A stretch of DNA of 64,000 nt from Chloroflexota bacterium. Its GTDB lineage: Bacteria > Chloroflexota > Limnocylindria > Limnocylindrales > CSP1-4. A program made the translations under genes and the position numbers. The first letter of the stretch is position 1; every line of letters begins with the position of its first letter. The notes beneath the pieces are model-generated. The model ran no database searches. It had not been told where the DNA came from and saw nothing but the letters and a program-made list of their open reading frames with translations. Shown piece by piece: positions 33,189 through 52,858 of this stretch. Location of the stretch: the NCBI GenBank assembly GCA_016200665.1, contig JACQEG010000019.1, positions 6,126 through 70,125 of the forward strand, given 5' to 3'.

Positions 33189-34600
33189 CCGCCGCGGGCA
33201 TCGCACCCGCTCCCGTGACGCCGCGCGTCCGTCCACCGCTCGATCCCGACTTCCAGCCGATCGCCCTCGCCCGCCGGGCGATGCTCGAGGCCGCGCGGAC
33301 CGACGGTCGCGCCGTGCCGGTGGCGCTGGCGCTGGAGCAGCCGGGCGGTGCGGTCGACGTCCGCGAGACACTCGTCATCCCGGCCGGGCGTCGTGGCGCG
33401 GCACTGAGCCGGGTGCTCTGCGAGCGACTCGCGAAGGCGATGCTCTGGTCACGCGGCGGCTCGCGCCTGTGGGTCGACGGGCCGGCGGACCTCGTCGCCG
33501 GGCTCCGGCGCCACTACGCGATGACATCGGTCGGTCGGTTCGACGCGGCCACGATCGGCGAGGCCGTGTACGCCGTGCCGCTCGAGGTCGTCGCGGCGCC
33601 GCGGGCCGAGTTCCCAACCAACCGCGATGCGGGGTCCGTGCTCGGCGGGCACCTCGACGGCTGCCGGATCGGCTTCGACCTCGGGGCGAGCGATCGCAAG
33701 GCGGCGGCGGTCCTCGACGGCCGCGTCGTGTTCAGCGAGGAGGTCGCGTGGGATCCGGCGCGGCAGGCCGACCCGCAATGGCACGTCGACCAGATCCAGG
33801 ACTCGCTGCGGCGGGCCGCCGCGCACCTGCCCCGGGTCGACGCCATCGGCGGCAGCTCGGCGGGGATCTACGTCGACAGCGCGGTCCGGGTCGCCTCGCT
33901 GTTCCGCTCCGTCCCGCCCGAGCTGTTCCGCAGCCGCGTGGCCGGCATCTTCCGCGAGCTCCGGGTGGCGTGGGGCGGCATCCCGTTCGTCGTGATCAAC
34001 GACGGCGAGGTGACCGCGCTCGCGGGCGCGATGCTCGCCGGGGTGGGCGGCCTGCTCGGGATCGCGATGGGCTCGTCCGAGGCGGCCGGGTACGTCCGGT
34101 CGGACGGCCGGCTCACGCCATGGCTCAACGAGCTGGCCTTCGTCCCGATCGACGTCGGAGCGGGGGCGGCGATCGACGACTGGTCGGGCGACCGCGGCTG
34201 CGGCGGCCAGTACCTCTCGCAGCAGGCGACGGGCCGGCTGCTTGGCCCGGCCGGCATCGAGGTCGCGGACGCGATGCCATTGCCCGAGCGCCTGATCCAG
34301 CTCCAGCAGCTGATGGCGTCGGGCGACGAGCGAGCCGCTCGCGTCTACCAGACGGTCGGCACGTACCTCGGCTACGCGCTCATCGAGTACCACGAGCTCT
34401 ACGACTTCGACCACCTGCTGCTGCTCGGCCGGGTCACGACGGGCGGCGGTGGCCAGCTCATCGAAGAGCGGGCGATCGAGGTCCTCCGGGCCGAGGCGCC
34501 GGCAATCGCCGCCGCGTTGACCTTCCACCGCGTGTCCGAGCGCGACAAGCGTCACGGCCAGGCCGTTGCGGCTGCGAGCCTGCCGTCGCTCGCCGGGTAG
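33185..34600 (+). CDS. ROK/ASKHA-type sugar kinase-like protein with a ~150-aa N-terminal extension
   Basis: GTGA overlap with the upstream gene. The kinase core is IGFDLGASDRKAAAV...GGSSAGIYV...VINDGEVTALAG...GIAMGSSEAAG. It lacks the classical ROK CXCGXXGC zinc motif. Confidence 0.7.
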   Translation: MTAAGIAPAPVTPRVRPPLDPDFQPIALARRAMLEAARTDGRAVPVALALEQPGGAVDVRETLVIPAGRRGAALSRVLCERLAKAMLWSRGGSRLWVDGPADLVAGLRRHYAMTSVGRFDAATIGEAVYAVPLEVVAAPRAEFPTNRDAGSVLGGHLDGCRIGFDLGASDRKAAAVLDGRVVFSEEVAWDPARQADPQWHVDQIQDSLRRAAAHLPRVDAIGGSSAGIYVDSAVRVASLFRSVPPELFRSRVAGIFRELRVAWGGIPFVVINDGEVTALAGAMLAGVGGLLGIAMGSSEAAGYVRSDGRLTPWLNELAFVPIDVGAGAAIDDWSGDRGCGGQYLSQQATGRLLGPAGIEVADAMPLPERLIQLQQLMASGDERAARVYQTVGTYLGYALIEYHELYDFDHLLLLGRVTTGGGGQLIEERAIEVLRAEAPAIAAALTFHRVSERDKRHGQAVAAASLPSLAG

Positions 34601-34605
34601 GCAGG

Positions 34606-34917
34606 TCAGCCAGGAGGCACGAGGCTCCGGCCCGCGAAGGGCGACGCGGGCAGGCGCATAAGCCGGTCGCTGGTGGTGGCATCATCGTCGGCCCGCAGGT
34701 ACTCAAGCCCGCAGTGCGGGCACGGCCCGACGACGCGCACCGAGATCGTCCGATCGCCATCGACGACGACGTACGAGGCCACGCCGTAGCGGATGTCCAT
34801 GATCGCCCGCATTGCGGAGACCTGGCGTCCGTCGCCGAGCTGGAGGGCAGCCGGGTGCGGGTCGTTGCGCCGACCCGGGGCGCTGACCTCGATGGCGACG
34901 ACGCGATGGGGCTCCAT
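34606..34917 (-). CDS. Hypothetical 103-aa protein (single CPHC motif)
   Basis: GC3 is high. ATG 34917 is chosen (GGGAGG 14 nt upstream); GTG 34986 is an alternative. The gene lies 124 nt downstream of the small secreted-peptide ORF on the same strand. Confidence 0.4.
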   Translation of the reverse strand: MEPHRVVAIEVSAPGRRNDPHPAALQLGDGRQVSAMRAIMDIRYGVASYVVVDGDRTISVRVVGPCPHCGLEYLRADDDATTSDRLMRLPASPFAGRSLVPPG

Positions 34918-35041
34918 GCCTTGGAACCTGGCCTCCCTGCTGCGCGTGGTGGGCCCGCCGTCGAGGCGCCGCGTCAGGCCTGGCACGCCCCGGGCGCGGC
35001 GCTATCGGATGAGTTGACCCTGGATCCGGTTCAGATTCAGA

Positions 35042-35167
35042 TCAGTGGGGGATGGGACTGCCACCGCCGTCCGCCAGGGCGGTGGCCGCGGCGAAGGCGA
35101 GGGTCGACAGAGCAGCCAGGGCAGCGAACGAGATCGAGCGGAGATGGCCGATGAGGTGACGACGCAC
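35042..35167 (-). CDS. Candidate secreted pro-peptide, 41 aa (MRRHLIGHLRSISFAALAALSTLAFAAATALADGGGSPIPH)
   Basis: The ORF is below the ORF-track size cutoff and was found by hand. GTG 35167 has GGGAGG 6 nt upstream. The peptide has a basic n-region, a ~20-aa hydrophobic core, an A-L-A motif and a 9-aa tail. GC3 is about 80%. It is divergent from the HTH-TPR gene. Confidence 0.4.
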   Translation of the reverse strand: MRRHLIGHLRSISFAALAALSTLAFAAATALADGGGSPIPH

Positions 35168-35215
35168 GGGGAGCCTCCCTGTCCCGCCGTCGCCCGGAGC
35201 ACGCCACGCACGAGG

Positions 35216-35245
35216 ATGCTAGGCGTCTGCTCGCTCGTTCGTCAA
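35216..35245 (-). promoter_or_regulatory. Putative promoter TTGACG-N18-TAGCAT for the small peptide ORF
   Basis: On the minus strand, TTGACG lies at 35245-35240 and TAGCAT at 35221-35216. The AGTAATACT palindrome (35246-35254) abuts the -35 element. Confidence 0.4.
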
Positions 35246-35327
35246 GTAATACTGCACCCCACGCCCGGCCCGGGACCGGTGAGGGCCTGACGCTCGCGAC
35301 AGAGGCGGTCAACCAAGAACCATCGCG

Positions 35328-35343
35328 TGGTATGGTGCTGTCC
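35328..35343 (+). promoter_or_regulatory. Putative extended -10 (TGgTATGGT) giving a leaderless HTH-TPR transcript
   Basis: TATGGT lies at 35331-36 with TG at 35328-29. ATG 35344 follows after 7 nt. There is no SD before either candidate ATG. Confidence 0.35.
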
Positions 35344-36648
35344 ATGCCACACAAGTCGCTCGGACGCACGCTCGCCCGCGAGGATGCCCCGATCGCCCGG
35401 GCGGTCGGCGAGCGGATCCGGGCCGAGCGGTTGCGGGCCCGCCTGACCCAGCAGCAGCTGGCCGACCCGCGCTACACGAAGGCGTACATCAGCGCCCTCG
35501 AGAACGGCCTCGCGAAGCCGTCGCTCGCCGCGCTGACGTTCATCGCCGGCAAGCTCGGGCTGACCCCGGCCTCGTTCCTGACGGCCGGGGAGCCGGCGTG
35601 GTCACGCCTCGAGGCCGATCTCGCCCTGGCGTCTGGCGAGTGGACCCGCGCGGTCGATGCGTACACGTCCCTGCTCGAGGCGGCCAGGCTGCCCGTCGAG
35701 CGAGCCGAGCTCGGTCTCGGTCTCGCCGAGGCCCTCATCCGGCTGGAGCGTGGCTCCGACGTGCTGGCCGCCGCCGGACCTGCCGCCGCGACCTTCCAGG
35801 CCACCGGGCGGCGGGCCGACGCGGCGCGCGCGCGGTACTGGATCGCGGCGGCCGAATACCAGCTCGACAACGAGACGGAGGCGCGCTCGATCATGCGGGC
35901 CCTGCTCGACGAGGTACGCGCCGGCTTGAGGATCGAACCGGACTTCGAGGTCCGGCTGCTCATCGCCCTCGCGGCGATCGACGGTCGGGCGATGCAGCCG
36001 AAGCGGGCACTCGCCTATCTCGACGAGGCGCGGGGTGTGGTCGAGGGCATGGACGATCGACGCCGGGCCACGTTCCTGAGCTCGCTCGCCGTCGGCTACC
36101 GCGAGAGCGGCGACGCCGAGGCCGCCATCCGGGTGGGCAACCAGGCGATCGCTCGATTCCGCGAGCTCGAGGCCGATCGCGAGGTCGCCGGCCTCGAGAA
36201 CGAGCTGGCGCTCACCCATCTGGCACTCGGATCCGCTCGCCGGGCGCGGCAGCATGCCGCGGCCGCCGCCGAGATCTGCCAGCGCCTTGGCGATCGCCAC
36301 TGGCTCGCCCACGTTCGCGAGACGCAGGCCCAGATCGAGCTCGCTGCCGGCGATCCCGGAGAGGCGGCGACGGCCGCGACCGAGGCGGCGGCGCTCGCCG
36401 ACGCGACCGGCAATCGCAAGGCTGCCATCAGCGCCCGACTGACACTGGCCAGGGCCCATCGGGCCCTCGGCCGGCGCGACGACGCCGTGGCGGCGCTGGA
36501 GCTGGCAGCGGACCAGGCCCGCGCGCACGGCCGCGTGCCGCAGCTACGCGACGTCCTGACCGAATGGGCCGACCTGCGGGCCGAGCTCGGCGATCCGCAG
36601 GGGGCCTACGCCCTCTCGCGCGAGGCGCTCGCGCTGGCTCGCGGCTGA
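35344..36648 (+). CDS. XRE-family HTH regulator with a long TPR-like C-terminal domain
   Basis: The HTH is IRAERLRARLTQQQLADPRYTKAYISALENGLAKPSLAALTFIAGKLG, followed by ~370 aa of Ala/Leu/Arg-rich helical repeats. ATG 35332 is an alternative start. Confidence 0.85.
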   Translation: MPHKSLGRTLAREDAPIARAVGERIRAERLRARLTQQQLADPRYTKAYISALENGLAKPSLAALTFIAGKLGLTPASFLTAGEPAWSRLEADLALASGEWTRAVDAYTSLLEAARLPVERAELGLGLAEALIRLERGSDVLAAAGPAAATFQATGRRADAARARYWIAAAEYQLDNETEARSIMRALLDEVRAGLRIEPDFEVRLLIALAAIDGRAMQPKRALAYLDEARGVVEGMDDRRRATFLSSLAVGYRESGDAEAAIRVGNQAIARFRELEADREVAGLENELALTHLALGSARRARQHAAAAAEICQRLGDRHWLAHVRETQAQIELAAGDPGEAATAATEAAALADATGNRKAAISARLTLARAHRALGRRDDAVAALELAADQARAHGRVPQLRDVLTEWADLRAELGDPQGAYALSREALALARG

Positions 36649-36679
36649 TCGTTCGCCCGCCGGTGTGGCGGGTCCGGGG

Positions 36680-37888
36680 TCAGACGCTTCGCGGCAGGAC
36701 CACGATCCGACGGTTGGGCTCCTCGCCGATCGACTGCGTCGCGACGTCCGGGTTGTTGCGGAGGGCCAGGTGGACCCACCGGCGCTCGAGCGCCGGCATC
36801 GGCTCCAGCTGGAGCATCTTGCCCGTCTCGAGGACCCGGGCGGCGGCGCGCTCGGCGATCTCGCGCAGCTGGCGCTCCCGCCGGCCGCGGTAGTCCTCGA
36901 CGTCGACGAGGACCCGCGTCCAGGCGCCCATCTCGCGCGACAGCATCAGGTTCACGAGGTGCTGGAGCGCCGACAGGCGCTCGCCCTTGCGGCCGATGAG
37001 GGCGCCAAGCGCCTCGCGCTCATCGCCGTCGCCGACGACATTGAGCCGGCTCGTCTCGCCGGACTCGACGTCGACCTTCACGTCGAAGCCCATGTGGTCG
37101 AGCAGCTTCTCGAGGATGACCTTGCCGGCGGCGAGCGCCTCGGGCGACGCCTCCGCGGCCTCGAGCTCGGCGCGCTCCGCGGCGACTGAGCCTCGCAGAG
37201 CCGCGACCTCGGCCTCCTCGGTCTCGCTCAGGCCGCTGCCGCCACGGTCGTCGCGACGGGGGCCGCGATCATCGTGTCGCGGAGGGCGGTCGTCGTACCG
37301 CGGACGGCGGTCGTCACGCGGAGCGCGCTCGCGCTCGGCGTAGGCCGGCCGATCCGCGCGCTCGACGGGGCCTCGGTCGTCGTGGCGTGGACCGCGCTCG
37401 GGCGCCGCACTGGGCGCGTCGCCTGCCGATGCGCCGGCTGGTGCACCCGCGTCGCGCCGGGGGCCTCGGTCGCCGAAGCCGCGATCGTCGCGGCGCGGCC
37501 CTCGATCGCGATCGCCGAAGCCACCGCGGTCGAAGCCGCGGCCACCGCCACGGTCGTCACGCCGCGGGCCCCGGTCGCGATCACCGAATCCGCCACGATC
37601 CCGGCGGCCGAAACCGCCACGGTCGTCGTCACGGTCTCGCGCCGGCGGCGCCGGCAGGGGCTTGGACGCGGCGGCCTCGCGCTTCGGCGCGGCGCCGCCC
37701 AGCAGCGATCGCGGTGCCGCGAGCACGCGGGCCGGCTCGGCCCCCATGCCCAGCACGCCCCGGCTGCCGGGGGTGAGGATCTCGAAGTCGAGGTCGTCCA
37801 GACCGACGCCGAACTCCTCGCGGGCGTTCTTCAGCGCCTCTTCGACGCTCTTGCCGGTGAACTCTCGGTAGGCATCCATGGCACTCAT
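36680..37888 (-). CDS. jag: Jag/KhpB (SpoIIIJ-associated, KH + R3H RNA-binding) with a ~170-aa Arg/Gly/Asp-rich insert
   Basis: The N-terminal Jag_N is GKSVEEALKNAREEFGV. The C-terminal KH/R3H region is IGRKGERLSALQHLVN...LEPMPALERRWVHLAL. The gene lies immediately downstream of yidC. Confidence 0.85.
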   Translation of the reverse strand: MSAMDAYREFTGKSVEEALKNAREEFGVGLDDLDFEILTPGSRGVLGMGAEPARVLAAPRSLLGGAAPKREAAASKPLPAPPARDRDDDRGGFGRRDRGGFGDRDRGPRRDDRGGGRGFDRGGFGDRDRGPRRDDRGFGDRGPRRDAGAPAGASAGDAPSAAPERGPRHDDRGPVERADRPAYAERERAPRDDRRPRYDDRPPRHDDRGPRRDDRGGSGLSETEEAEVAALRGSVAAERAELEAAEASPEALAAGKVILEKLLDHMGFDVKVDVESGETSRLNVVGDGDEREALGALIGRKGERLSALQHLVNLMLSREMGAWTRVLVDVEDYRGRRERQLREIAERAAARVLETGKMLQLEPMPALERRWVHLALRNNPDVATQSIGEEPNRRIVVLPRSV

Positions 37889-37889
37889 G

Positions 37890-39044
37890 TCAGCGACGTC
37901 TCCCGCGTCGGCCTTGGCGGCCTCGCTGGCGAATCGTGGCGTTCGCCGAGGCGGACCGCTCGATGGCGGACTTCTGAGGGGTGGGGGGTCGCGCGGGCGC
38001 TCCCGCCGCGCGCGGTGGGGAAGCGGCCGCCGTGGGCATGGCGACCGGGAAGCGCGGTTTGTGCTCCCGCGCGAAGCCGGGAGTGAAGCCGAACAGCGGG
38101 AACATCCCGCCGAAGCCGGTGGTCAGGAACTGCTGTGCGACCTGGTAGATCGTCGAGACGATCAGGTAGACGAACAGCCCGACCGGGATGACCGTGGAAT
38201 AGAGCAGGGTGATCAGTGGCAGCCAGATGCTCATGGCCCGTTGCGTCCGGACGTTCGGGTCGAGCGGGATGTTCGGATTGTGGGCCGGTAGCGCCAGGCG
38301 CGACGCGACGAGCTGGATGAGCGTATAGACGATCGCGAAAACCGAGATCCCGATCCCGATGACCGGGATGGTGAACAGGCCCTCGTAGCCGGCGGCATTC
38401 ATCCCGCCGAGCCACGGTATCGTCGTGTTCAGGCAGGACGTGCCCCAGGCGTGGACCTGGCCGACCGTGCAGTCGAGCTGGAACACCTGGAAGCCGAAGA
38501 CCTGGAGCATCGGGTTCGGATCTGGCGAGCTCAATCCCTCGCGAATGACCTGGTACATCGGCAGGATCAGGAGGATCGGCAGGAACGCCGTCAGGCAGCC
38601 GGCCTGGCTGATCCCGCGCTCCTTCATCATCTCGGTCTGCGCCTGCTGGGCCTTCATCCGGTCGCCCTTGTAGCGGCGCTGGATCTCCTTGATCTCCGGC
38701 TGGAGGGCCTGGAGCTGGCGCATCGAGACCATCTGGCGCCGCATCAGCGGAACCATCACCGTCCGAACGACGAGGGTCGTCAGGATGATCGCGATGCCGA
38801 TGTCGGGAACGAGCTTGTAGATCCCGACGAGGAGCAGGAAGAAGGCCTGGAAGATCGGCGTGAACAGCCACGCCAGGACGCTGAGCGGATCGCCCTTGAG
38901 CTCGGCCGGGTGCAGCGGCGTCGGGGGCGTGATGGTCTGGCCCGGGGCGAGGCTTCCACCGCCGGGCGTGCACGCGGCCACGACGAGGACGACGAGCGCG
39001 AGCAGCCCGAGGGCGATCAGGCGACGACGAAGGCTGGGGCTCAC
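37890..39044 (-). CDS. yidC: Membrane protein insertase YidC (lipoprotein-type signal, basic C-tail)
   Basis: GTG 39044. The lipobox is VVAAC. Motifs seen are IILTTLVVRTVMVPL and LQPEIKEIQRRYKGDR. The C-terminus is RGRQGRRGRRR. Confidence 0.93.
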   Translation of the reverse strand: MSPSLRRRLIALGLLALVVLVVAACTPGGGSLAPGQTITPPTPLHPAELKGDPLSVLAWLFTPIFQAFFLLLVGIYKLVPDIGIAIILTTLVVRTVMVPLMRRQMVSMRQLQALQPEIKEIQRRYKGDRMKAQQAQTEMMKERGISQAGCLTAFLPILLILPMYQVIREGLSSPDPNPMLQVFGFQVFQLDCTVGQVHAWGTSCLNTTIPWLGGMNAAGYEGLFTIPVIGIGISVFAIVYTLIQLVASRLALPAHNPNIPLDPNVRTQRAMSIWLPLITLLYSTVIPVGLFVYLIVSTIYQVAQQFLTTGFGGMFPLFGFTPGFAREHKPRFPVAMPTAAASPPRAAGAPARPPTPQKSAIERSASANATIRQRGRQGRRGRRR

Positions 39045-39057
39045 GATGGGATTGTCC

Positions 39058-39264
39058 TCATCGAACGGGGTCGTAGCCGCCCGGATACCCGGGGTGGCAG
39101 CGCGCTATGCGGCGAGCGCCCATCCAGCTGCCGCGCAGCAGCCCGTAGCGCTCGATGGCCTGTTCCGTGTAGACCGAGCAGGTCGGCTGGTAGCGGCATG
39201 GCGAGGGCAGCCACGCGAACAGGAAGCGGTACGCATGGATCAGCGCGATCCCCACCTGCTTCAC
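39058..39264 (-). CDS. yidD: Membrane protein insertion efficiency factor YidD
   Basis: GTG 39264 forms a GTGA overlap with the rnpA stop. The motif is [19 protein letters not shown]...RIARCHP. Confidence 0.85.
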
Positions 39265-39614
39265 GAGGTCCGGTCCCGGTGCACGCCGTCGTTGCCTCCC
39301 AGTACGCCGCTCCGCCGAAGGAGTCGCCCGAGCGTCTCCTGCAGCGCCCGATGGTCCGCCGCCACGAGCCCCGGCCTCGCGATCACGAGGACGTCCCACC
39401 CGGGTTGCAGCTCGAGCGACATCGATCGGAGCACCTCGCGGAGTCGCCGGCGAACCCGGTTTCGAACGACGGCCGACCCGATGGCCTTGCTCGTCGCCAG
39501 GCCGAATCGCGTCGATCCGAGGTCTGTCCGGAGGACTCGCGTTGCGAGGAGGGGGTGGGATCGAATCGTCCCCCGCTCCAGGAGCGCCGCGAAGTCCCGC
39601 GGGCTGGAGAGCAT
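39261..39614 (-). CDS. rnpA: RNase P protein component
   Basis: ATG 39614; GTG 39617 is an alternative. Motifs seen are [24 protein letters not shown] and DVLVIARPG. The gene lies 35 nt downstream of rpmH. Confidence 0.85.
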
Positions 39615-39649
39615 CACGAGGCGCGGCGGTCGAGTGCCGCGCTCGGTCG

Positions 39650-39784
39650 TCAGACCGACAGGCGCTTGCGACCGCGAGCCCGGCGTGCGGCCAGGACGCG
39701 GCGTCCGCCCGTGGTCTTCATCCGGGCGCGGAAGCCGTGTTCCTTGGCGCGGTGGCGCTTCTTGGGCTGGTAGGTCTGCTTCAT
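39650..39784 (-). CDS. rpmH: 50S ribosomal protein L34
   Basis: Hand translation gives [44 protein letters not shown]. The ORF is below the ORF-track cutoff. Confidence 0.95.
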
Positions 39785-39975
39785 CGTGCCTGCGCGGGAT
39801 CCTCTCCGTCGGGCCTCGGGGTTCCGTCATCCATGACCCCGAAAGGCACGCGAACGCGCCGGCGCCCCCACGGGGCGTGGCGCGTTCACTGTCCGGCGGA
39901 TGATAGGTCTGCCCGGAACATCGGTCAAACGCGCCAGCAGGCCGGTCCGGCGTGACCCCGGGGGCCCGAGCAACC

Positions 39976-39994
39976 GATACTCCCGGGGAGTATC
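39976..39994. repeat. Perfect 19-bp palindrome GATACTCCC-G-GGGAGTATC in the rpmH-dnaA intergenic region
   Basis: Read directly. The 9-bp arms are exact reverse complements. Confidence 0.85.
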
Positions 39995-40222
39995 ACGGAA
40001 TTGCCTTGCGACGGTCCGGGGGCGGTGCTATCGTTCGCGCCCCGACGCCCCCCGGACGGTCCCATCTCGACCGGTTCGGAGCCCGCCGGACACCGTTCGC
40101 AGCCCCGCGAACCCGGAGCAACGGACTCGCCATCGCCTGATCTCGACGCCCCTGGCTCATCGGAATCCGGCTTCGCCTCGACCCACGTCAGCCCACCCCG
40201 ACAGAGAGCCGACATCGACCCT

Positions 40223-41704
40223 ATGGACGCGAAGCAGGTCTGGCGCGCAGCGCTCGGAGAGCTCCAGGTATCGCTGTCGCCAGCGAACTTCGAGACGTGG
40301 CTGCGCGAGACGGCGATCGTCGAGGTCGACGACAACCGGTTCCGGATCTCCGTCCCGAACGGCTTTGCCAAGGACTGGCTCGAGAGCCGCTACCGCTCCC
40401 TGATCTCCCAGACGCTGGCCCGGATCGTGGGCTACAGCGTTCAGGTCGAGTTCATCGTCGGACCCGCGCCGGACGCACCCGAGCCGGAGGACGCCGACGC
40501 CGATGGCCTGGCCTTCGAGCCGGCGCCCAAGCCGATGGCGGCCGCCGGGCATCCGAACGGCAACGGCCATGGCGGCCACGTCATGGGCCCCGGCCGGCCT
40601 GCCCCCGGGACGAGCCCCCAGCCCGCCGGCTCGCAGCAGGTCCGGATCGAGCCGACCCGCGTCGGCGGCGAGGGCGGGACGAGCTTCCTCAACGCCCGCT
40701 ACACGTTCGCGAACTTCATCGTCGGCTCGGCCAACCGCCTCGCCCATGCCGCGTCGCTATCGGTCGCCGAGCGCCCGGGCCACGCCTACAACCCGCTGTT
40801 CCTGTACGGCGGCGTGGGCCTCGGCAAGACCCACCTCATGCACGCGATCGGCAACCAGGTCCTCGCGAAGTTCCCCCGCAAGCGGGTGGTCTACGCGACA
40901 TCGGAGAAGTTCACGAACGAGTTCATCACCTCGATCCAGCAGGGCAAGATCGATGAGTTTCGATCGCGCTACCGCCGGATCGACGTCCTGCTCATCGATG
41001 ACATCCAGTTCATCGCCGACAAGGAGCGGACGCAGGAGGAGTTCTTCCACACCTTCAACGCGATCCACGAGGACGGCAAGCAGATCGTCCTGTCCTCGGA
41101 CCGGCCACCGAAGGCCATCCTGACGCTCGAGGAGCGTCTCCGGTCGCGGTTCGAGTGGGGCCTCATCGCCGACCTCACCGCGCCGGACCTCGAGACGCGC
41201 ATCGCGATCCTCCGGGCCAAGGCCGAGGAGGGCGCGGTCCCGATCACATCGGATGTCATCGAGTTCATCGCCCGCAAGGTCGTGTCGAACATCCGGGAGC
41301 TCGAGGGCGCCCTCAACCGGATCGTCGCCTATGCCTCGATGGGCGCGATGCCGATCTCGATCGAGCTCGCCCAGGCCGTGCTCTCGAACGTCCTCTACAA
41401 CCCCAAGAAGCGCCAGATCACGCCGGAGCGGATCGCCAAGGCCGTGTCCGAGTACTACGGCGTCGGGCTCGACGCCCTGCGCGGCCAGAAGCGCGACAAG
41501 GCCATCGTCGTGCCGCGTCAGATCGCGATGTTCCTCATGCGCGAGGAGACCGACGTCTCGCTGCTCCGGATCGGCGCGGAGCTCGGTGGGCGAGACCACT
41601 CCACGGTCCTCCACGCCTGCGACAAGATCACCCGCGAGTCGTCGGCCAACGACGAGCTCCGCCGCGAGATCGCCGCGGTCCGCGAGCTGATCTACGCCGA
41701 CTGA
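40223..41704 (+). CDS. dnaA: Chromosomal replication initiator DnaA
   Basis: ATG 40223 opens MDAKQVWRAALGELQ. Motifs seen are AAA+ GGVGLGKTHLMHAIGN, LLIDDIQF, box VII and the C-terminal DNA-binding DHSTVLHA. Confidence 0.96.
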   Translation: MDAKQVWRAALGELQVSLSPANFETWLRETAIVEVDDNRFRISVPNGFAKDWLESRYRSLISQTLARIVGYSVQVEFIVGPAPDAPEPEDADADGLAFEPAPKPMAAAGHPNGNGHGGHVMGPGRPAPGTSPQPAGSQQVRIEPTRVGGEGGTSFLNARYTFANFIVGSANRLAHAASLSVAERPGHAYNPLFLYGGVGLGKTHLMHAIGNQVLAKFPRKRVVYATSEKFTNEFITSIQQGKIDEFRSRYRRIDVLLIDDIQFIADKERTQEEFFHTFNAIHEDGKQIVLSSDRPPKAILTLEERLRSRFEWGLIADLTAPDLETRIAILRAKAEEGAVPITSDVIEFIARKVVSNIRELEGALNRIVAYASMGAMPISIELAQAVLSNVLYNPKKRQITPERIAKAVSEYYGVGLDALRGQKRDKAIVVPRQIAMFLMREETDVSLLRIGAELGGRDHSTVLHACDKITRESSANDELRREIAAVRELIYAD

Positions 41705-45199: not shown

Positions 45200-47461
45200 T
45201 TGGCCCACCGCCTGCAAATGAAGCTCGGCGTGATGCCCGAGTCGGATCGCCTGCCCGACTCGCCGGACACGGTGCTGCACGTCCAGCCGCGCATCGGGGC
45301 GCAGCTGCGGACGAAGGGCCACCTCTACCTGCTCGTGACCTCGAGGGTCGCTGGCCACCGCGCCCACGAGGCCACCCGGCTCGTCGCCGACTCCATCCGG
45401 GCCGAGTACTACTACGACGAGTCCGGCGGGATCCGGGTCTGCCTCGCGAAGGCGATCCAGGCCGCGAACAAGCGCCTCGGCCACGCCCGTGAGCGATCCG
45501 CCCTCGGCGCGACCGGTGACACGGGGCCGATCGGCGTTGCCGTCGCGGTCGTCCGCGACAACGAGCTGTACGTCTCGACGGTCGGGCCCGCGGAGGCCTA
45601 CCTGAGCCGCGGCGCGCGACTCTCGACGCTGCCCGACCCGCACCGCGACCGCGGCCTGCCGGCCGCCGAGCTCGAGCCCGACGTCTGGCGGGGTGAGATC
45701 AACGTCGGCGACCAGCTGCTGCTCGTCTCTCCGAGCGTCGCCGAGGCGCTCGGGTCCGACGAGCTCAAGGAGGCCCTCGTCACGCTCCATCCGCAGTCGG
45801 CGGTGGAGCGCATCCACGCCCGCTTCGTCGAGGCTGGCGGGACCGGCAGCGACGGGGCGATCACCCTCGAGGTGGGCGAGGTCGCCGCGTCCCGCTCCGG
45901 CCGCGCGCCGATCCCGGTCCGGCCGGCCGAGCCGCTGGCCGGCACCCCGGATCGGTCGCCGATCCCGCTCGTGGACTCCGTGGCCGGCGGCATGGCGGCG
46001 GCCCAGAACGCGGCTGACGCGGCGAGGTCCGCGGCCGGCGGCGTGGCCGGGCGACTGTTCCGGCGGCTGCAGGACTCCCTGCCCGCTCGTAGTCCGCGCG
46101 ATCGGCGGGTGACGCCGATGACGGCGCGGCGCGAGATGCAGCAGCGGGCCGCGATTGCGATCCTCAGCTTCGTCGTCGTCATCGGCGCCCTGGGCGCCGG
46201 CGTGACCTTCATCGGCAGCCACCCGTTCCCGGGTCCCGCCATCGCCTCCTTCGAGGCCGGCCAGAAGGCCCTCGACGAGGCGAAGGCCGACCTCGATCGG
46301 GTCCTCGGTCCGGGTGTCGACCTCGTCACGAACGACCGGCGCAAGGCGGCGACCCTGCTGACCGACGCGATGGCCAAGCTGACCGCCGCGGCTGCCGCGG
46401 GAATTCCCGCAGCCACGATCCAGCCGCTCCGCGACCAGGCCGTCGCGGCGATCGACCGGCTCTACAACCTGATCGACGTCGGCGACACGGTCCTGTTCAC
46501 GTTCCCGGCCAACCAGCCGATCGACCTCAGGGCGATCGTCCGCGGTCCGGACGGCGCCCCGTACGTTCTCGACGCGGGCACGAAGACGGTCTACCGGATC
46601 GACCTGGCGAAACAGACGGCCGGTGCGATCTTCCGGGTCGGGACGAAGGTCGGCACGGCGACCGAGGGAGAGCCGAGGCTCATGACCGTGGGCGGGCGTG
46701 ACCTCGTCATCCTCGACTCGAAGAGCGTGGTGTGGAAGTGGACCCCGGCCAATACGACCGGCCGCGGCACGACCCGGAAGGTCAGCGTCAAGGGCGCCTC
46801 GGAGTGGGGCAGCGACGTCCTGGCCATTGGCACCTTTGCCCGCAACGGCGACCTCTACAACCTGTACGTCGTCGACCCGTCCGAGCAGCAGGTGCTCGGC
46901 TATACCCCGGCGATCGACGGGAGCGGATACCCATCGGCGCCGGTCGGTCGGCTGAGCGCGCCCCGGGACGTGAGCGGGATCACCTCGCTCTACATCGATG
47001 GCGACATCTGGCTCGCGGACGGCGGACGGCTGCTCCGAATCGTCAACGGCCGGAGCGAGGGCTGGACCTCCGCCGACCCGGGCGACACGATCATCCGGCC
47101 GGTGCCCCGCTACACGCTCGTGACATCCGGGTCCGACCGCCGCGAGGGCCGCATCTACGGCTTCGACGCGAACAGCCGCCGCGTGATCTCATTCCTCAAG
47201 ACCGATGGCTCGTTCGTCGAGCAGTACCGGCTCGCGGCCGAATCGTCGGGCTGGACGGACCTCCGCTCGTGGTACGTCGTGGCGGGTGTCGGCGATCAGC
47301 CGGACACGCTGTTCTGGATCTCCGGGACCGCGATGCACAAGACGGTCCTCGAGCGGCCGGTGAGCGGCCCGGGTGCGTCGCCCGGCGGGTCGCCGGCGGC
47401 CTCGTCGAGCTCGACCGCCGCCCCCGCCTCGACCGCCGCCCCCGCCTCGACCGCCCCGTGA
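45200..47461 (+). CDS. Membrane protein: degenerate PP2C-like N-terminal domain, one TM helix, beta-propeller-like C-terminal domain
   Basis: TTG 45200 has GGAGG 6 nt upstream; ATG 45218 is an alternative. PP2C-like blocks are present but the Asp-containing motifs are replaced: TSRVAGH for DGMGGH, VGPAEAYL for VGDSRAYL, and LLLVSPSV for LLLCSDGL. The TM helix is AAIAILSFVVVIGALGAGVTFI. Confidence 0.75.
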   Translation: MAHRLQMKLGVMPESDRLPDSPDTVLHVQPRIGAQLRTKGHLYLLVTSRVAGHRAHEATRLVADSIRAEYYYDESGGIRVCLAKAIQAANKRLGHARERSALGATGDTGPIGVAVAVVRDNELYVSTVGPAEAYLSRGARLSTLPDPHRDRGLPAAELEPDVWRGEINVGDQLLLVSPSVAEALGSDELKEALVTLHPQSAVERIHARFVEAGGTGSDGAITLEVGEVAASRSGRAPIPVRPAEPLAGTPDRSPIPLVDSVAGGMAAAQNAADAARSAAGGVAGRLFRRLQDSLPARSPRDRRVTPMTARREMQQRAAIAILSFVVVIGALGAGVTFIGSHPFPGPAIASFEAGQKALDEAKADLDRVLGPGVDLVTNDRRKAATLLTDAMAKLTAAAAAGIPAATIQPLRDQAVAAIDRLYNLIDVGDTVLFTFPANQPIDLRAIVRGPDGAPYVLDAGTKTVYRIDLAKQTAGAIFRVGTKVGTATEGEPRLMTVGGRDLVILDSKSVVWKWTPANTTGRGTTRKVSVKGASEWGSDVLAIGTFARNGDLYNLYVVDPSEQQVLGYTPAIDGSGYPSAPVGRLSAPRDVSGITSLYIDGDIWLADGGRLLRIVNGRSEGWTSADPGDTIIRPVPRYTLVTSGSDRREGRIYGFDANSRRVISFLKTDGSFVEQYRLAAESSGWTDLRSWYVVAGVGDQPDTLFWISGTAMHKTVLERPVSGPGASPGGSPAASSSSTAAPASTAAPASTAP
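47411..47457 (+). repeat. 18-bp tandem repeat (TCGACCGCCGCCCCCGCC x2.6) encoding STAAPA repeats at the gene's 3' end
   Basis: Read directly: 47411-28 and 47429-46, plus a partial third unit. Confidence 0.85.
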
Positions 47462-47524: not shown

Positions 47525-48241
47525 GTGATCCCGCTCCGCGATCGCAATCCGACGCGCCGGACGCCGGTCGTCACGTTCGGCCTCATCGCCGCCTGCTTCG
47601 CGGTCTTCCTCCTGGAGCTGTCGATCAGCCTGTCTGGCGGTGACGCGGCGCTCGGGCGGTTCTTCAACGAGTGGGGCGCGGTGCCGGCGCGGATCAGCGC
47701 GGCGCTGGCCGCCGGCAACGACCTCGCGCCGGCGATGCTCACGACGATCACGAGCCAGTTCCTCCACGGCGGCTGGCTGCACATCCTGGGCAACATGCTG
47801 TTCCTGTGGATCTTCGGCAATAACGTCGAGGATCGGCTGGGGCGGATCCCGTTCCTCGGCTTCTATCTCCTCGGCGGGATCGCCGCGGCCCTGACCCAGG
47901 TCTGGATCGACCCCTCGTCGCACGCGCCGCTCGTCGGCGCCTCGGGGGCGATCGCGGCGGTCCTCGGCGTGTACTTCGTGCTGTGGCCGGGGGCGAGGAT
48001 CCTGTCACTCGTCTTCCTCGGCTTCTTCTACCAGCTCCTCGAGGTGCCGGCCCTCATCGTCCTCGGCTACTGGTTCGTGCTCCAGCTCGTCAGCGGCGCG
48101 GCGTCGCTCGGCGCCGAGACCGCGGCGAGCGGCGTGGCGTTCTTCGCGCACATCGGCGGGTTCGTCGCCGGGGCGGTCGTCGGGTTCGTCCTCCGGATGA
48201 CCGGCCTCGGGCGCGGGCTGGGGATGCGCCCGCCCGGCTGA
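47525..48241 (+). CDS. Rhomboid-family intramembrane serine protease
   Basis: Motifs seen are the GxSG catalytic motif GASGAIAAVLG, the catalytic His AHIGGFVAG, and FLHGGWLHILGNMLFLWIFG. Confidence 0.88.
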   Translation: MIPLRDRNPTRRTPVVTFGLIAACFAVFLLELSISLSGGDAALGRFFNEWGAVPARISAALAAGNDLAPAMLTTITSQFLHGGWLHILGNMLFLWIFGNNVEDRLGRIPFLGFYLLGGIAAALTQVWIDPSSHAPLVGASGAIAAVLGVYFVLWPGARILSLVFLGFFYQLLEVPALIVLGYWFVLQLVSGAASLGAETAASGVAFFAHIGGFVAGAVVGFVLRMTGLGRGLGMRPPG

Positions 48242-49803: not shown

Positions 49804-51387
49804 TCATCCCGTCCCGTTCACCGCACCCATGACCTCGTACACGGCGAGGCTCCCGGACCCGGCAACGATCTGCAACTGGTACACGGCCTGGACCCCGGCG
49901 AGGTCGCCGGGATTGGCCCGGATGATGTAGACAGGTCGAGTCCCCAGGAATGCTGAGATCGCGCCGTTCGCGCTCCCGTAGCCACGGTCGATGATGGTGC
50001 GGTCGTCGATGACGGCGATGTCCGGTCGCCGGCGGTCCACCAGCTCCGCGTACCACAGCGGCGTCGAGGTGCTCCACCAGCTGACGACGACCGCGTCCTG
50101 CGCCAGGTGCGGCAGGACGTCGTCCAGCCACAGCGAGGCGTCCGTCGCCGCGTGCCGATCCGCCGCCCGGCGGTGGGCATCGAGCGCCTGCAGGCTGGGC
50201 AGGAGCAGCGCCGCGGCCACGATGACCGAGGCGGCGCCCATCGCCGGGCCCAGCGACCCGCGACGCGCGAGGGCCGACCACACGGCGACGATCAGGTCGA
50301 CCGCCATCGCGGCGAGCATCGCGACCCAGGTCCAGGCCCACAGGACCGGGCCGAGGTAGTAGCGGTTGATGTCGGCATTCGAGTACGACGCGTTGAAGAC
50401 CACCGTGATGACCATCGCGACGCCGGTCAGGAGCGCGTACCGCGGCGCTCGCCTGAGCGTCGCCAGGAAGCCGAAGGGCACCAGGAGCGCGGCGATCCCG
50501 AGCTGGCCCTGGGCGAACGTCCAGAGGTCCGCGGCCTTGCGCCCGAGGTCGTCGAGCGGATGGGACAGCGAGCCCCGGAACTGCTCGGCCAGGGCGATGT
50601 ACCAGAAGCCGTCCCACGTGTTGGGCCGGGCGTAGACGAGTGGCGCCGGCAGCAGGCCAGACCGGATCGGCAGCTCGAGGTAGACGCCCGCGACGGCGAC
50701 CGCGAGCGCGATGACGCACGCACCGACGAACCGCGGCCGGCGGACGATCCCGGGCTCGACGGCGAGGACGTACAGCCCGATCGGCGGGGCGAGGAGCAGC
50801 GTCAGCGAGTGGTTGCCGGCCGACAGGCCGAATGTGGCTGCTGCCGCCACGAGCCAGCGATCCGCGGTCGCCGGGTTGGATCCTCGGGCCGCCTCCCAGC
50901 CCACGAGCAGCAGCAGGATCAGCGCGACGAAGAACAGGTGGAGGGGATGGGGATCGGCCCGGGTGGCGTTGGCCCAGACGACGGGGGTGAGCGCCAGGCC
51001 CAGGCCGGTCGCAACCCCGATCGCGAGCGAGGCCGTGAGCCGGCGCACGAGCTCGACGGTCAACGCGGCGGCGCCGGCGACGGCGAGCAGCGACAGGATG
51101 TTGATCCGGAACGCCGGCTCCCCGAACGGGGTCAGGACGAGGTTCGCCACCCAGCCGATGAGGACGTACGTCGGATAGCCGGTCGGATGCGCAGTGCCGA
51201 GGATCGGCAGGACCGTCTGGAACTCGCCGGTGTCCCAGAAGCCGACGCCGGGCATGAGGCCGCTCCAGGCGTTGACGACGACGATCGCGGCCACGGCGAT
51301 GGCTGCCCCTGCGGGTTCCGCCGCGGACCAGGCGCGGGACGGCCGCGACGCAGGCCCGCTGGGCAGGCGCCCGAGGTCACCAGCCAA
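49804..51387 (-). CDS. DUF2723 (TMEM260-like) GT-C-fold glycosyltransferase-like membrane protein
   Basis: The motifs FWDTGEFQ and HPTGYP lie near the N-terminus. The protein has many TM helices and a soluble C-terminal domain. TTG 51387 overlaps the upstream gene by 11 nt, and the start is uncertain. Confidence 0.78.
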   Translation of the reverse strand: MAGDLGRLPSGPASRPSRAWSAAEPAGAAIAVAAIVVVNAWSGLMPGVGFWDTGEFQTVLPILGTAHPTGYPTYVLIGWVANLVLTPFGEPAFRINILSLLAVAGAAALTVELVRRLTASLAIGVATGLGLALTPVVWANATRADPHPLHLFFVALILLLLVGWEAARGSNPATADRWLVAAAATFGLSAGNHSLTLLLAPPIGLYVLAVEPGIVRRPRFVGACVIALAVAVAGVYLELPIRSGLLPAPLVYARPNTWDGFWYIALAEQFRGSLSHPLDDLGRKAADLWTFAQGQLGIAALLVPFGFLATLRRAPRYALLTGVAMVITVVFNASYSNADINRYYLGPVLWAWTWVAMLAAMAVDLIVAVWSALARRGSLGPAMGAASVIVAAALLLPSLQALDAHRRAADRHAATDASLWLDDVLPHLAQDAVVVSWWSTSTPLWYAELVDRRRPDIAVIDDRTIIDRGYGSANGAISAFLGTRPVYIIRANPGDLAGVQAVYQLQIVAGSGSLAVYEVMGAVNGTG

Positions 51388-52858
51388 GGATGTTGCCCCA
51401 GATGACGCCCCAGGCGTTCACCAGCATCGACACACCGATGAGCGCGACGCCGAGCAGCCCGACGCCGTTGCGGCGTGCCATCCCGACCGCGACGAGCGGC
51501 AGGGCGAACGGCACGAAGTCGTTGCTGAAGCGGTAGCCGAACTGGACCCAGCCCTGGCTGAAATGCATGAGGTTCACGAGGCCGATGACGACGACCGCGA
51601 GGAAGGCTCCGGCGACGAGGCGCGACCGCCCGCCGCGCAGCGCGGGGAGCAGGAGGAGATACGCAGGGCTCGTCAGCAGGATGCTCATCCCGACCGCCTG
51701 GGGCATGGCGATGGGGCAGGTCGGGTCGAAGACGTCACGGGTCGCGCCGGGCTCGGTGCAGGCCGGATCGCCCGGCGTCCCGAAGACGGTCGGCAGGGGA
51801 TCCGGCATCACGGCCGGCGTCGACAGGAACAGGATCTCGAGGTTCTGGGGCAGGTAGCGGGCATCCTCGATCGACCACGCCGGGTGGTAGTTCAGCGACG
51901 CATAGCCGCTCGCCTCGAGCCGGTATTGGTACTCGTAGCCCGGGTGGAACACGTGCCCGGTCGTGGCCACGTTGTAGCCGAGCAGGAGCGCCAGCGGGAT
52001 CGCCGCGCCGAGCGCCGCCGAGGCGCCCCGCCGGAGCCACGAGCCGCCACTCCCGACGAACAGGAAGAACGGCGCGCCGAACGCGACGGTGAGCCGCGCC
52101 GTGCAGGCGAGACCGAAGAGCAGGCCGGCCACGAGCTGGCGGCGATCGATCAGGCTCGCCGGTGCTCGCAGGACCGCGCTGACGCTGCCGCCGATCGACC
52201 GCACCGAAGGCAGGTCGTCGACCTCCTCGTCGGCCGCGGCGTCGCCGCCGAGGACGACGCCGACCGCGAGCAGCGCGAACGTGACGGCGACGACGTGGGC
52301 GAAGAACCACGTCGTGCCGAGCTGCGCGGCGTACCAGAACACCGTCCCGAAGGCGAAGAAGACGGTCGTTGCGAGGCGGATCCGGCGCGACACCGCGAGC
52401 TTGCCGAGAGCCCACCACGCGATGCCGACGTCGAGCGCCCCGAACCACACCGACACGAGCCGGTGGTCGGTCGCGAGACCCCACAGGGCGACGAACGGCA
52501 TGAGGATGACCGCCGGCAGCGGAGGGAACGGCAGGAGCGCCCCGATCGTCTGGCCGGTGGCGTCCCGAACCGGGTAGACGTCCTGGAAGTAGGCGTTGCC
52601 CGGGCCCGCGGCGCTCGGCTCGACCGGCCAGTCGAGCATCGCCCGACCGTGGAGGAAGGCGTCGGCCTGCCAGACGAAGTGATTGAAGAGGCGATCGTGA
52701 CCGGGCAGCCAGTAGGCGGCCAGCGCCAGCCCGACGAGGACGATCCCGACCGCGGCGGCGGGGACGGCGTCAAGCCATCGCGCCAGGGGTTCGACGATCC
52801 TGAGGGGGTCTCGTGGCGTCACCGGATGGTCGACTGCCGCGTCCGGAGCGTCGGCCAC
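51377..52858 (-). CDS. GT-C-fold (ArnT/PMT-like) integral membrane glycosyltransferase-like protein
   Basis: GTG 52858 has GGGAGGG about 9 nt upstream. The 493-aa protein is polytopic. The family is inferred from topology and context only. Confidence 0.65.
   Translation of the reverse strand: MADAPDAAVDHPVTPRDPLRIVEPLARWLDAVPAAAVGIVLVGLALAAYWLPGHDRLFNHFVWQADAFLHGRAMLDWPVEPSAAGPGNAYFQDVYPVRDATGQTIGALLPFPPLPAVILMPFVALWGLATDHRLVSVWFGALDVGIAWWALGKLAVSRRIRLATTVFFAFGTVFWYAAQLGTTWFFAHVVAVTFALLAVGVVLGGDAAADEEVDDLPSVRSIGGSVSAVLRAPASLIDRRQLVAGLLFGLACTARLTVAFGAPFFLFVGSGGSWLRRGASAALGAAIPLALLLGYNVATTGHVFHPGYEYQYRLEASGYASLNYHPAWSIEDARYLPQNLEILFLSTPAVMPDPLPTVFGTPGDPACTEPGATRDVFDPTCPIAMPQAVGMSILLTSPAYLLLLPALRGGRSRLVAGAFLAVVVIGLVNLMHFSQGWVQFGYRFSNDFVPFALPLVAVGMARRNGVGLLGVALIGVSMLVNAWGVIWGNILGW

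Follow-up and report, generated by a model that had tools for sequence, protein, structure and literature searches.

Genetically encoded peptide signals that are read by cytoplasmic tetratricopeptide repeat (TPR) receptors are regarded in the literature as a hallmark of the Bacillota and of the mobile elements found there, and small molecules are described as the signals of other phyla (PMC10075063, PMC9765709, PMC12700828). The literature that we found confined RRNPP(A) systems to Bacillota, including the mobile elements of this phylum, and did not tie these systems to Chloroflexi or Limnocylindria or report them in Actinomycetota. The locus analyzed here raises the question of whether a system of this kind is also encoded in the Chloroflexota. 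It is located in a 64,000-nucleotide stretch of DNA from a Chloroflexota bacterium, referred to below as the window, and comprises a small open reading frame (ORF) on the minus strand and a divergent gene on the plus strand that encodes a regulator with a helix-turn-helix (HTH) domain and TPR-like repeats. The original prediction, made from the DNA of the window alone, had proposed that both form an RRNPP-like pair of peptide and receptor. As far as sequence goes, this proposal is supported by the conserved linkage of the two genes, the agreement of the small product with signal peptide rules, and the TPR fold of the regulator model. We consider it probable, at roughly 0.6, that the locus is an RRNPP-like peptide signaling cassette and represents a variant in a new phylum.

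The window derives from a metagenome-assembled genome (MAG) of the Limnocylindria (Chloroflexota). The regulator is 100% identical to MBI3750307.1 of a MAG named "Chloroflexi bacterium," and its relatives carry the names Candidatus Limnocylindrales or Limnocylindria. Given this identity and these names, the initial description of the context as actinobacterium-like was wrong; the high GC content noted along with it is real. We gathered 84 loci that encode relatives of the regulator, 4 from species-representative genomes and 80 from metagenomes. The 83 close loci, with regulator identities of 49 to 83%, form the basis of the peptide-linkage counts, and 55 distinct peptide gene sequences form the basis of the counts on reading frame and peptide anatomy.

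Evidence that the small ORF is a gene

The small ORF (35042..35167, minus strand) consists of 41 codons and a stop codon. It starts with GTG (35167-35165), ends at 35044-35042, and encodes the 41-amino-acid (aa) product MRRHLIGHLRSISFAALAALSTLAFAAATALADGGGSPIPH, which can be divided into the pre-sequence MRRHLIGHLRSISFAALAALSTLAFAAATALA and the tail DGGGSPIPH. A Shine-Dalgarno sequence, GGGAGG (35174..35179, minus strand), is found 6 nt 5' of the start codon. ORF, start codon, and ribosome-binding site had all been predicted, and each is present at its predicted position. The ORF is without annotation in the NCBI record, in which the flanking proteins are numbered consecutively (MBI3750306.1 and MBI3750307.1). 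Scanning the minus strand 5' of the regulator gene with a peptide profile, we found that 68 of the 83 close loci have a homologous ORF of 38 to 46 aa next to the gene for the orthologous regulator. The synteny of a small ORF with a conserved tail and orthologous regulators, which had been named as a check on the proposal, was thus observed. The remaining 15 loci include 8 with too little upstream DNA on the contig and 7 (L005, L019, L046, L047, L056, L081, and L083) that truly lack the peptide ORF in the profile scan despite sufficient upstream DNA. All 51 candidates listed from relatives start with ATG or GTG and have a GGAGG/AGGAG/GGAG-type site 5 to 11 nt upstream.

None of the 55 distinct sequences has an interruption in the proposed frame, and the other frames are broken in 9 to 48 of them. 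The ratio of nonsynonymous to synonymous substitution rates (dN/dS), determined by the Nei-Gojobori method and pooled over 19 phylogenetically independent pairs, is 0.35 in the proposed frame, whereas four control frames gave values of 1.36 to 1.82. The pair L031/L034, for example, differs at 10 synonymous and 2 nonsynonymous sites, which is a classic coding pattern. A database search with an alignment of 46 sequences as the query retrieved 330 clusters (at 90% identity) of peptide homologues that gene callers had predicted elsewhere (E ≤ 0.01); nearly all of them are named "hypothetical protein," and none has a Pfam domain. Judged from this record, the small ORF is a real gene and more than a chance product of GC-rich DNA, because it is conserved in 68 of the 83 loci, start codon and ribosome-binding site are kept, its frame stays open and has a dN/dS of 0.35, and its promoter is conserved.

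A caveat made at the outset was that alanine- and leucine-rich ORFs are common in DNA of 70% GC, so that the frame might be open by chance or the real gene might lie antisense to it. A plus-strand ORF in the exact antisense frame (35045..35290) is indeed open in the window, and the wobble-sharing antisense frame also has a low dN/dS of 0.44, a value expected by symmetry. However, only the proposed frame is open in 55 of 55 sequences and under purifying selection: the wobble-sharing frame contains stops in 32 of 55 relatives, and the exact antisense frame, with stops in 14 of 55 and a dN/dS of 1.70, is not coding and was rejected as a gene. Conservation of the start codon, the ribosome-binding site, the stop position, and the promoter, along with the 330 protein clusters of gene-caller homologues, also argues against a fortuitous frame. 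This caveat has lost its force; a chance or antisense origin is already refuted as far as comparative sequence analysis reaches, and its probability is close to nil.

Anatomy of the peptide family

The predicted Sec-type signal peptide of the window product covers residues 1 to 32 (35072..35167, minus strand) and is composed of the N-region MRRHLIGHLR and an uncharged h/c-region of 22 residues with A-L-A at positions −3 to −1. In the family alignment, it is followed by the predicted mature peptide DGGGSPIPH of 9 aa (35045..35071, minus strand). Every copy has the same layout, namely, a basic N-region, 22 uncharged residues, a [V/A]-x-[A/G] site, and a tail of 7 to 13 aa (mode, 9). Invariant across the family are Met1, the Arg that closes the basic N-region, and a Pro near the C terminus (52 of 52). 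In a rule-based check of 55 homologues, the net charge of the N-region ranged from +2 to +6, and all 55 conformed to the rules for signal peptides, so that the layout claimed for an exported pro-peptide (basic n-region, hydrophobic core, and A-x-A site) holds well beyond the window. In 50 of 55 sequences, exactly 22 uncharged residues separate the Arg from the tail, and the sequence of this stretch drifts freely. Position −3 is occupied by V (38/55) or A (17/55) and position −1 by A (53/55) or G (2/55); the entire pre-sequence measures 29 to 37 aa. The 55 Limnocylindria peptides contain no Cys and hence no lipobox. Many copies have a pair of arginines (e.g., SRRSFSF), yet others have KR, RH, or TF instead, and a Tat signal was rejected.

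The tail has the consensus (D/G/V/A)-G/T/S-G-G-x-x-(F/Y/I/W/L)-P-(H/R/K). Its GGG and the aromatic position are strongly conserved, and the flanking positions differ between clades, as illustrated by DGGGSPIPH (window), DGGNVYIPH, DGGDIPHPH, GGGGTSYPH, GDGGPPFPK, DSTGGPW, and VTGGGDFPR(xR). The conserved residues, i.e., the N-region Arg, the [V/A]-x-[A/G] site, and the Gly-rich tail with its aromatic residue and Pro, are those that would be needed for export, cleavage, and a C-terminal signal. This is the pattern to be expected in a putative precursor for which these three steps matter, and it is also the pattern of RRNPP pro-peptides.

Domain architecture and predicted structure of the regulator

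The divergent gene (35344..36648, plus strand) starts with an ATG at 35344, in agreement with its orthologues, which mostly have 430 to 440 aa, and encodes 434 aa with an HTH domain and nine TPR-like repeats. A protein of about 435 aa with an XRE-type HTH and TPR-like repeats had been expected here. Pfam HTH_3 matches residues 25 to 76, and TPR_12 matches with an E value of 1e-13, above the Pfam cutoff; both models are also found in all 28 homologues inspected. An AlphaFold2 (AF2) model based on 28 homologues has a mean predicted local distance difference test (pLDDT) score of 90.6 and a predicted template modeling (pTM) score of 0.72. In this model, an HTH domain of five helices precedes 18 helices that form nine TPR-like repeats (residues 88 to 433; 35605-36642, plus strand). 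Residues that are invariant in the family include W100, R120, E129, R133, W166, and N286. Taking Pfam and the model together, the XRE-type HTH spans approximately residues 18 to 79 (35395-35580, plus strand). The TPR fold assigned to the C-terminal domain thus appears in the predicted structure as a confident superhelix of nine repeats.

In a Foldseek search against the Protein Data Bank (PDB), the best matches were the peptide-binding TPR domains of LGN/Pins (E = 3e-9). PlcR-PapR(-DNA) complexes followed at ranks 22 and 34 (E = 8e-7 and 5e-6), and complexes of RapJ, RapI, RapF, and phi3T Rap with their pheromones were found at ranks 24 to 49 (E = 1e-6 to 8e-6; TMq, 0.45 to 0.54); over the PlcR and Rap matches together, TMq ranged from 0.35 to 0.54. 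NprR and AimR were not among the best 50 matches to the PDB. A sequence profile compared with PDB chains matched the TPRs of kinesin light chain (E = 8e-9). Its best HTH match was PlcR (E = 3.6e-7), with residues 18 to 79 of the regulator aligned to residues 3 to 64 of PlcR; ComR, SinR, RapH (4e-5), MalT, and RapJ (3e-3) were also matched, and NprR was absent at E ≤ 1. The predicted architecture of the regulator is that of a nine-TPR RRNPP receptor, and any homology to the RRNPP receptors is putative.

We also considered a regulator of the MalT/STAND type. Such TPR regulators have an NB-ARC/AAA+ ATPase domain before the TPR sensor and a LuxR-type HTH. This assignment was rejected: the regulator has no ATPase domain, its HTH is XRE type and N-terminal, and its match to TPR_MalT is below the cutoff (24 bits versus 45).

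Linkage and genomic neighborhoods

The start codons of the small ORF and the regulator gene are 176 bp apart in the window. Linkage was also apparent in the reverse direction: four peptide homologues, present at six genomic places, all had a divergent gene for a TPR protein of 372 to 432 aa at a distance of 175 to 355 bp (called genes). The other flanks of the pair vary and include genes for LigD, NifU, a HAD hydrolase, a WYL regulator, or sugar transport. Because a search with the peptide leads back to the regulator while the other flanking genes vary, peptide and regulator are best described as a predicted two-gene module. The gene beyond the peptide gene is convergent in most of the six places, and the peptide gene is therefore monocistronic there. 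No conserved modification enzyme was found beside the pair in the nine loci with called genes.

A variant of this module has three genes. In 25 loci, a small XRE-type HTH gene (approximately 90 to 130 aa; N-terminal motif, STIAKH) is located directly 5' of the regulator gene on the same strand, and wherever the peptide gene is on the locus, the extra gene sits between the two. These loci are L002 (approximately 3700-4035, plus strand), L003, L009, L011, L014, L015, L022, L024, L025, L027 to L029, L033, L037, L038, L040, L041, L044, L057, L068, L069, L075 to L077, and L085. The clade of the window is without this gene.

The regulators of loci without a peptide gene were inspected for decay in L005, L019, L047, L056, L081, and L083. 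Decay was rejected, as they differ at 0 to 5 of 86 near-invariant columns, which is within the range of the others. In L005 (2444-3073), a DUF3892-like gene is directly divergent from the regulator gene, and all that is left of the peptide promoter is a decayed AATACTT.

A DUF3892-like gene is also found downstream of the small ORF in the window (34606..34917, minus strand); it encodes 103 aa with a CPHC motif, and its match to DUF3892 is below the threshold. It is linked to the pair in only 13 sources (12 loci and the window), all within the closest clade; the regulator gene of L028 has it on its opposite side. The idea that this gene is an output of the system did not hold for the family, since elsewhere the gene beyond the peptide gene is mostly convergent or unrelated, and the DUF3892-like gene is not a core part of the module. 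In the clade of the window, it may be cotranscribed with the peptide gene.

The window represents the region of the chromosomal origin, with the order gyrB, gyrA, prs, prfB, an N-acetylglucosamine-type operon, the locus of small ORF and regulator, jag, yidC, yidD, rnpA, rpmH, and dnaA; the origin-proximal cluster from jag to dnaA is located at approximately 36680-41704. The pair adjoins the jag/yidC/dnaA cluster in the window, L086, and L087, and its orientation to the cluster in L086 is opposite to that in L087 and the window. In L085, the pair is found elsewhere in the genome, away from this cluster. Farther along the window are a rhomboid protease gene (47525-48241) and two ORFs (45200-47461, plus strand, 753 aa, and 51377-52858, minus strand, 493 aa) with a coding-like GC content at third codon positions; neither of these ORFs has a Pfam match at E ≤ 1e-5.

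Regulatory DNA between the two genes

The promoter predicted for the small ORF is present at 35216..35245 (minus strand) and consists of TTGACG (35245-35240), a spacer of 18 nt, and TAGCAT (35221-35216). It is the only sigma-70-like match in the 2.5 kb from 34400 to 36900, for which dinucleotide shuffles gave an expectation of 0.0, and the pattern TTGAC-N17/18-TA(G/C)(C/G)AT is conserved in most clades. Transcription is predicted to begin at approximately 35209. The −35 element is abutted by an AT-rich block, GCAGTATTAC (35246..35255, minus strand; family consensus, GTTTAGnAATA(C/G)), which is conserved in register with TTGAC across approximately 35 loci. This block may be an operator or UP-like element, and it is the best candidate for an operator. 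A palindrome next to the promoter, AGTAATACT, had been proposed for that role. It is present at 35245-35253 and overlaps the AT-rich block, but it is not conserved as a dyad and was rejected as the operator, with the AT-rich box now taken as the candidate. A second copy of the promoter/box motif, which would have hinted at a regulon, was sought in the window, and only the site itself was found.

In the clade with GGGDF/GGADF/GGDW tails (mostly VTGGGDFPR), a different conserved element, GGGACCGnnGGGTCATTGTC, takes the place of the TTGAC/AT-rich promoter; it contains an imperfect inverted repeat and is located approximately 85 to 105 nt 5' of the peptide start (L020, L021, L023, L030, L032, L042, L050, L055, L059, L060, L062, L065, L066, L072, and L074). 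The promoter or operator may thus have been swapped within the peptide family.

A hairpin in the 5' untranslated region of the small ORF (35161..35191, minus strand) has the Shine-Dalgarno sequence in its loop and the GTG start with the first codons as its 3' arm. Its 10 pairs are formed in 99.1% of the cells in an alignment of 11 sequences, with 2 compensatory changes, compared to 24 to 56% in slid controls. The hairpin is conserved only in the clade of the window, where it suggests gating of small-ORF translation. Upstream of the regulator gene, the hexamer TATGGT (35331..35336, plus strand) is the likely −10 element, and 11 loci have TA(Y)(R)(S)T with the same spacing to the start codon. 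Because this −10-like hexamer is only 7 nt before the ATG at 35344, it suggests that the regulator mRNA is leaderless or nearly so. The longer ORF start called by the ORF finder (35332) falls inside the hexamer. Rfam contained no known RNA that matched the region.

Distant relatives

A search of 1.84 billion cluster representatives with the regulator profile retrieved 270 clusters at E ≤ 1e-30 (approximately 270 receptor clusters, counted at 50% identity). There was no relative among IMG/VR viral contigs. Distant full-length relatives (profile E values of 1e-40 to 1e-47) and a homologue of 28% identity from Candidatus Sysuimicrobiota have an adjacent ORF of 34 to 55 aa, each of them a single example. 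The N terminus of this ORF is signal peptide-like in four of five cases; that of L100 is only hydrophobic. The small ORF is located downstream of the regulator gene in L094 (2172-2294; MSRFALVLALLMALVSAGSFASA followed by HEAEKERDWGGPPPICC) and L100 (2699-2803; ending in GVSGSPPGCC). It is upstream in L097 (1233-1400; ATTASAMA followed by DDDICPPTNSDVVVEIMDVPA) and upstream in the same direction in L098/L099 (L098, 2211-2330; MSFRRFILAIVVALGLAFSTNIAAGTADA followed by CDPATTGGYC). The 28%-identity homologue, from Candidatus Thermofontivivens primus (Ca. Sysuimicrobiota), is encoded in L004 (4016-5341) and has an upstream ORF (3742-3885, plus strand) that encodes MRKLIALLLLALALTQVSVLSASIPSAWA followed by DGGSGSVTINGGGWPGGK and has an AAGGAGG ribosome-binding site. 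A further distant relative, L095/L096, has no neighboring small ORF.

The distant small ORFs are upstream or downstream of the regulator gene and in the same direction, and their tails are unrelated (DGGSG...GGGWPGGK after AWA, ...WGGPPPICC, ...SPPGCC, and CDPATTGGYC after ADA). Tails and gene orientations thus differ among the distant relatives as they do among RRNPP subfamilies. These data suggest a wider superfamily of HTH-TPR proteins with small ORFs outside the Bacillota.

Comparison with known peptide signaling systems

The operational RRNPP signature comprises a pro-peptide of 10 to 100 aa, a Sec/type I signal peptidase (SPI) signal or membership in the short hydrophobic peptides (SHPs), a receptor of 250 to 500 aa, TPRs, and direct neighborhood of both genes (Bernard et al. 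2023, PMC10075063). Four of these five elements are found outright in the window, namely, a pro-peptide of 41 aa (38 to 46 aa in the 55 homologues), a receptor of 434 aa, TPRs, and adjacency. A Sec/SPI signal is putative: all 55 homologues agree with the rules for one, and the fixed length of 22 aa would also suit an uncleaved anchor. The cassette fits the signature and has no specific affiliation, by sequence or fold, with any known RRNPP family.

The closest relative is NprR/NprX by architecture, Rgg/SHP by gene arrangement, and PlcR by HTH sequence. NprR/NprX of the Bacillus cereus group is likewise a chromosomal two-gene cassette in which a receptor of similar size, with an HTH and nine TPR-like repeats, is paired with a pro-peptide of approximately 40 aa that has a Sec-type signal and yields an active peptide of 7 to 9 residues (for the peptide studied here, both the signal and this length are predictions). 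NprR has approximately 420 aa, and nprX is located downstream of nprR in the same direction. The Limnocylindria pair differs in that its genes are divergent, its host belongs to the Chloroflexota rather than the Bacillota, and its regulator has no detectable sequence relationship to NprR. In addition, the predicted signal peptidase product is already short, leaving no pro-region for exoproteases. PlcR is the best HTH sequence match, and it binds the C terminus of PapR, a pro-peptide that is exported by Sec. However, PlcR has five TPRs and approximately 285 aa, and beyond the HTH the alignment includes only a portion of the repeats. Unlike the Gly-Pro-basic Limnocylindria tail, the signal of PapR (...LPFEF) has a hydrophobic and acidic character.

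In the Rgg/SHP systems of streptococci, the peptide gene is divergent, and the peptide promoter and operator are located in a short intergenic region. The Limnocylindria pair shares the divergent peptide gene and the short common intergenic region. Rgg differs by its size of approximately 285 aa and its other repeat domain, and the Limnocylindria regulator matches no Rgg-type family. Moreover, SHPs are secreted through PptAB, without a Sec signal (PMC10075063). As for Rap/Phr, the repeat domain superposes on RapJ, RapI, RapF, and phi3T Rap, and Phr peptides are Sec exported with the signal in the C-terminal 5 to 6 residues. Rap proteins, in contrast, have no HTH and act on proteins, not DNA, and the similarity to them is no stronger than that to LGN/Pins (E = 3e-9) or kinesin light chain (8e-9), so that no specific kinship is shown. 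Taken together, the cassette is unlike the known RRNPP systems in its phylum, in the absence of family-specific sequence signals, in the missing pro-region, and in being a conserved, apparently vertically inherited core pair as opposed to a fast-moving accessory or mobile-element system.

A model for the cassette and its alternatives

Under the interpretation as a signaling cassette, the pre-peptide would be made from its own strong sigma-70-type promoter, GTG start, and GGGAGG site, all of which are present in the sequence. According to signal peptide rules, it would cross the membrane by the Sec pathway, and type I signal peptidase would cleave it behind A-L-A, so that DGGGSPIPH would be released directly, with no pro-region. 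Chloroflexota are generally held to be without an outer membrane. The peptide would build up outside the cell and then be reimported, presumably by an oligopeptide permease. Inside the cell, DGGGSPIPH would bind the groove of the nine-repeat TPR domain and alter the DNA binding of the regulator in the 176-bp intergenic region, where the AT-rich box abutting the −35 element of the peptide gene is the candidate operator. The outcome would be autoregulation and possibly the control of a further regulon.

A number of observations weigh against this interpretation. The fixed length of the uncharged stretch fits an uncleaved transmembrane anchor equally well, and the tail varies less within the class than pherotype signals, which diversify fast, usually do. 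Seven loci have a regulator and no peptide gene, so that the regulator does not strictly depend on an adjacent peptide gene. No RRNPP-specific Pfam or NCBIfam model was matched by the window regulator or the 28 homologues, which match only generic HTH_3, HTH_19, HTH_31, and TPR_x models. By fold, generic TPR proteins that bind peptides (LGN/Pins and kinesin light chain) match best, the TPR profile matches to RapH and RapJ are weak and rank below kinesin light chain, and Foldseek searches against the PDB and BFVD did not separate RRNPP receptors from generic TPR proteins. Finally, there was no oligopeptide permease (SBP_bac_5/Opp) among the approximately 20 ORFs scanned of the approximately 36 large ORFs of the window.

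Alternatively, the small ORF might be a regulated output, i.e., a secreted or surface micropeptide with a role of its own, for example in the envelope, in adhesion, or as an antimicrobial, and the regulator might control its transcription in response to another ligand or partner. Divergent layouts of regulator and target are common in bacteria, the peptide promoter and its −35-adjacent box are conserved, the orphan regulators keep their invariant residues without an adjacent peptide gene, and TPR domains, to which the generic top fold matches belong, bind many kinds of partners. However, a mature product of 7 to 13 aa with an invariant C-terminal motif leaves little room for a structural role, and in more than 60 loci and through rearranged neighborhoods, the TPR regulator is the only partner that stays with the peptide. 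The pairing recurs in the distant relatives, where the tails are unrelated and the orientations differ, as the coinheritance of receptor and ligand predicts. We therefore regard a role as a mere output as unlikely. More improbable still is that the product stays uncleaved as a single-pass membrane microprotein, with its N terminus inside and the 9-aa tail outside, that tethers or modulates the regulator or another membrane protein. The length of 22 residues in 50 of 55 sequences is that of a transmembrane helix, the N terminus obeys the positive-inside rule, and the annotation of one JGI homologue reads "uncharacterized membrane protein." Nevertheless, the near-invariant [V/A]-x-A before the tail follows the rule for signal peptidase I, whereas a plain anchor would have no obvious use for it, and pre-sequences of 29 to 37 aa are typical of signal peptides in single-membrane bacteria. 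Furthermore, conservation is strongest in the extracytoplasmic tail and not in the cytoplasmic N-region that a TPR regulator could reach.

The small ORF might also encode the precursor of a bacteriocin or of a ribosomally synthesized and posttranslationally modified peptide (RiPP), with the TPR protein controlling biosynthesis or immunity. This is suggested by a weak NCBIfam match between the regulator and HaaT, a TPR protein of cyclophane RiPP systems (E = 2.4e-4; 19 bits versus a cutoff of 1125) and by the Cys-rich tails of some distant relatives (CDPATTGGYC, ...PPICC, and ...PPGCC), which could be cross-linked. The Limnocylindria tails, in contrast, are without Cys, the leader is a Sec-type signal and not a RiPP leader, and the neighborhoods examined share no maturation gene beside the pair, be it for a radical-SAM enzyme, a cyclase, a protease-transporter, or another such protein. 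We consider such a precursor very improbable, and the signaling cassette remains the explanation that we favor.

Implications

A structural-phylogeny paper from 2025 treats the outgroup of RRNPPA as an open problem. We propose, tentatively and with more doubt than confidence, that the cassette is a branch of an old and mostly vertically inherited superfamily of non-Bacillota Terrabacteria (Limnocylindria, Ca. Sysuimicrobiota, and others), in which an HTH-TPR receptor is combined with an adjacent Sec-exported pro-peptide and which is possibly the outgroup of RRNPPA. Should this superfamily and the RRNPPA receptors of Bacillota be homologous, it may be the missing outgroup, and peptide quorum sensing by TPR receptors would be older than the Bacillota; peptide quorum sensing would then also belong to the core chromosomal functions of Chloroflexota that are abundant in soil and freshwater.

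The RRNPP design is seen here as a conserved core chromosomal module in the Limnocylindria, a widespread and essentially uncultured class, and at least one further phylum has look-alikes of it. If the interpretation as a signaling cassette is true, a number of consequences follow. The logic of RRNPP_detector would be usable beyond the Firmicutes, and a candidate outgroup would be available to root the evolution of RRNPPA. The predicted signal sequences would be open to synthesis and to testing on enrichment cultures, and peptide quorum sensing would reach a new phylum.

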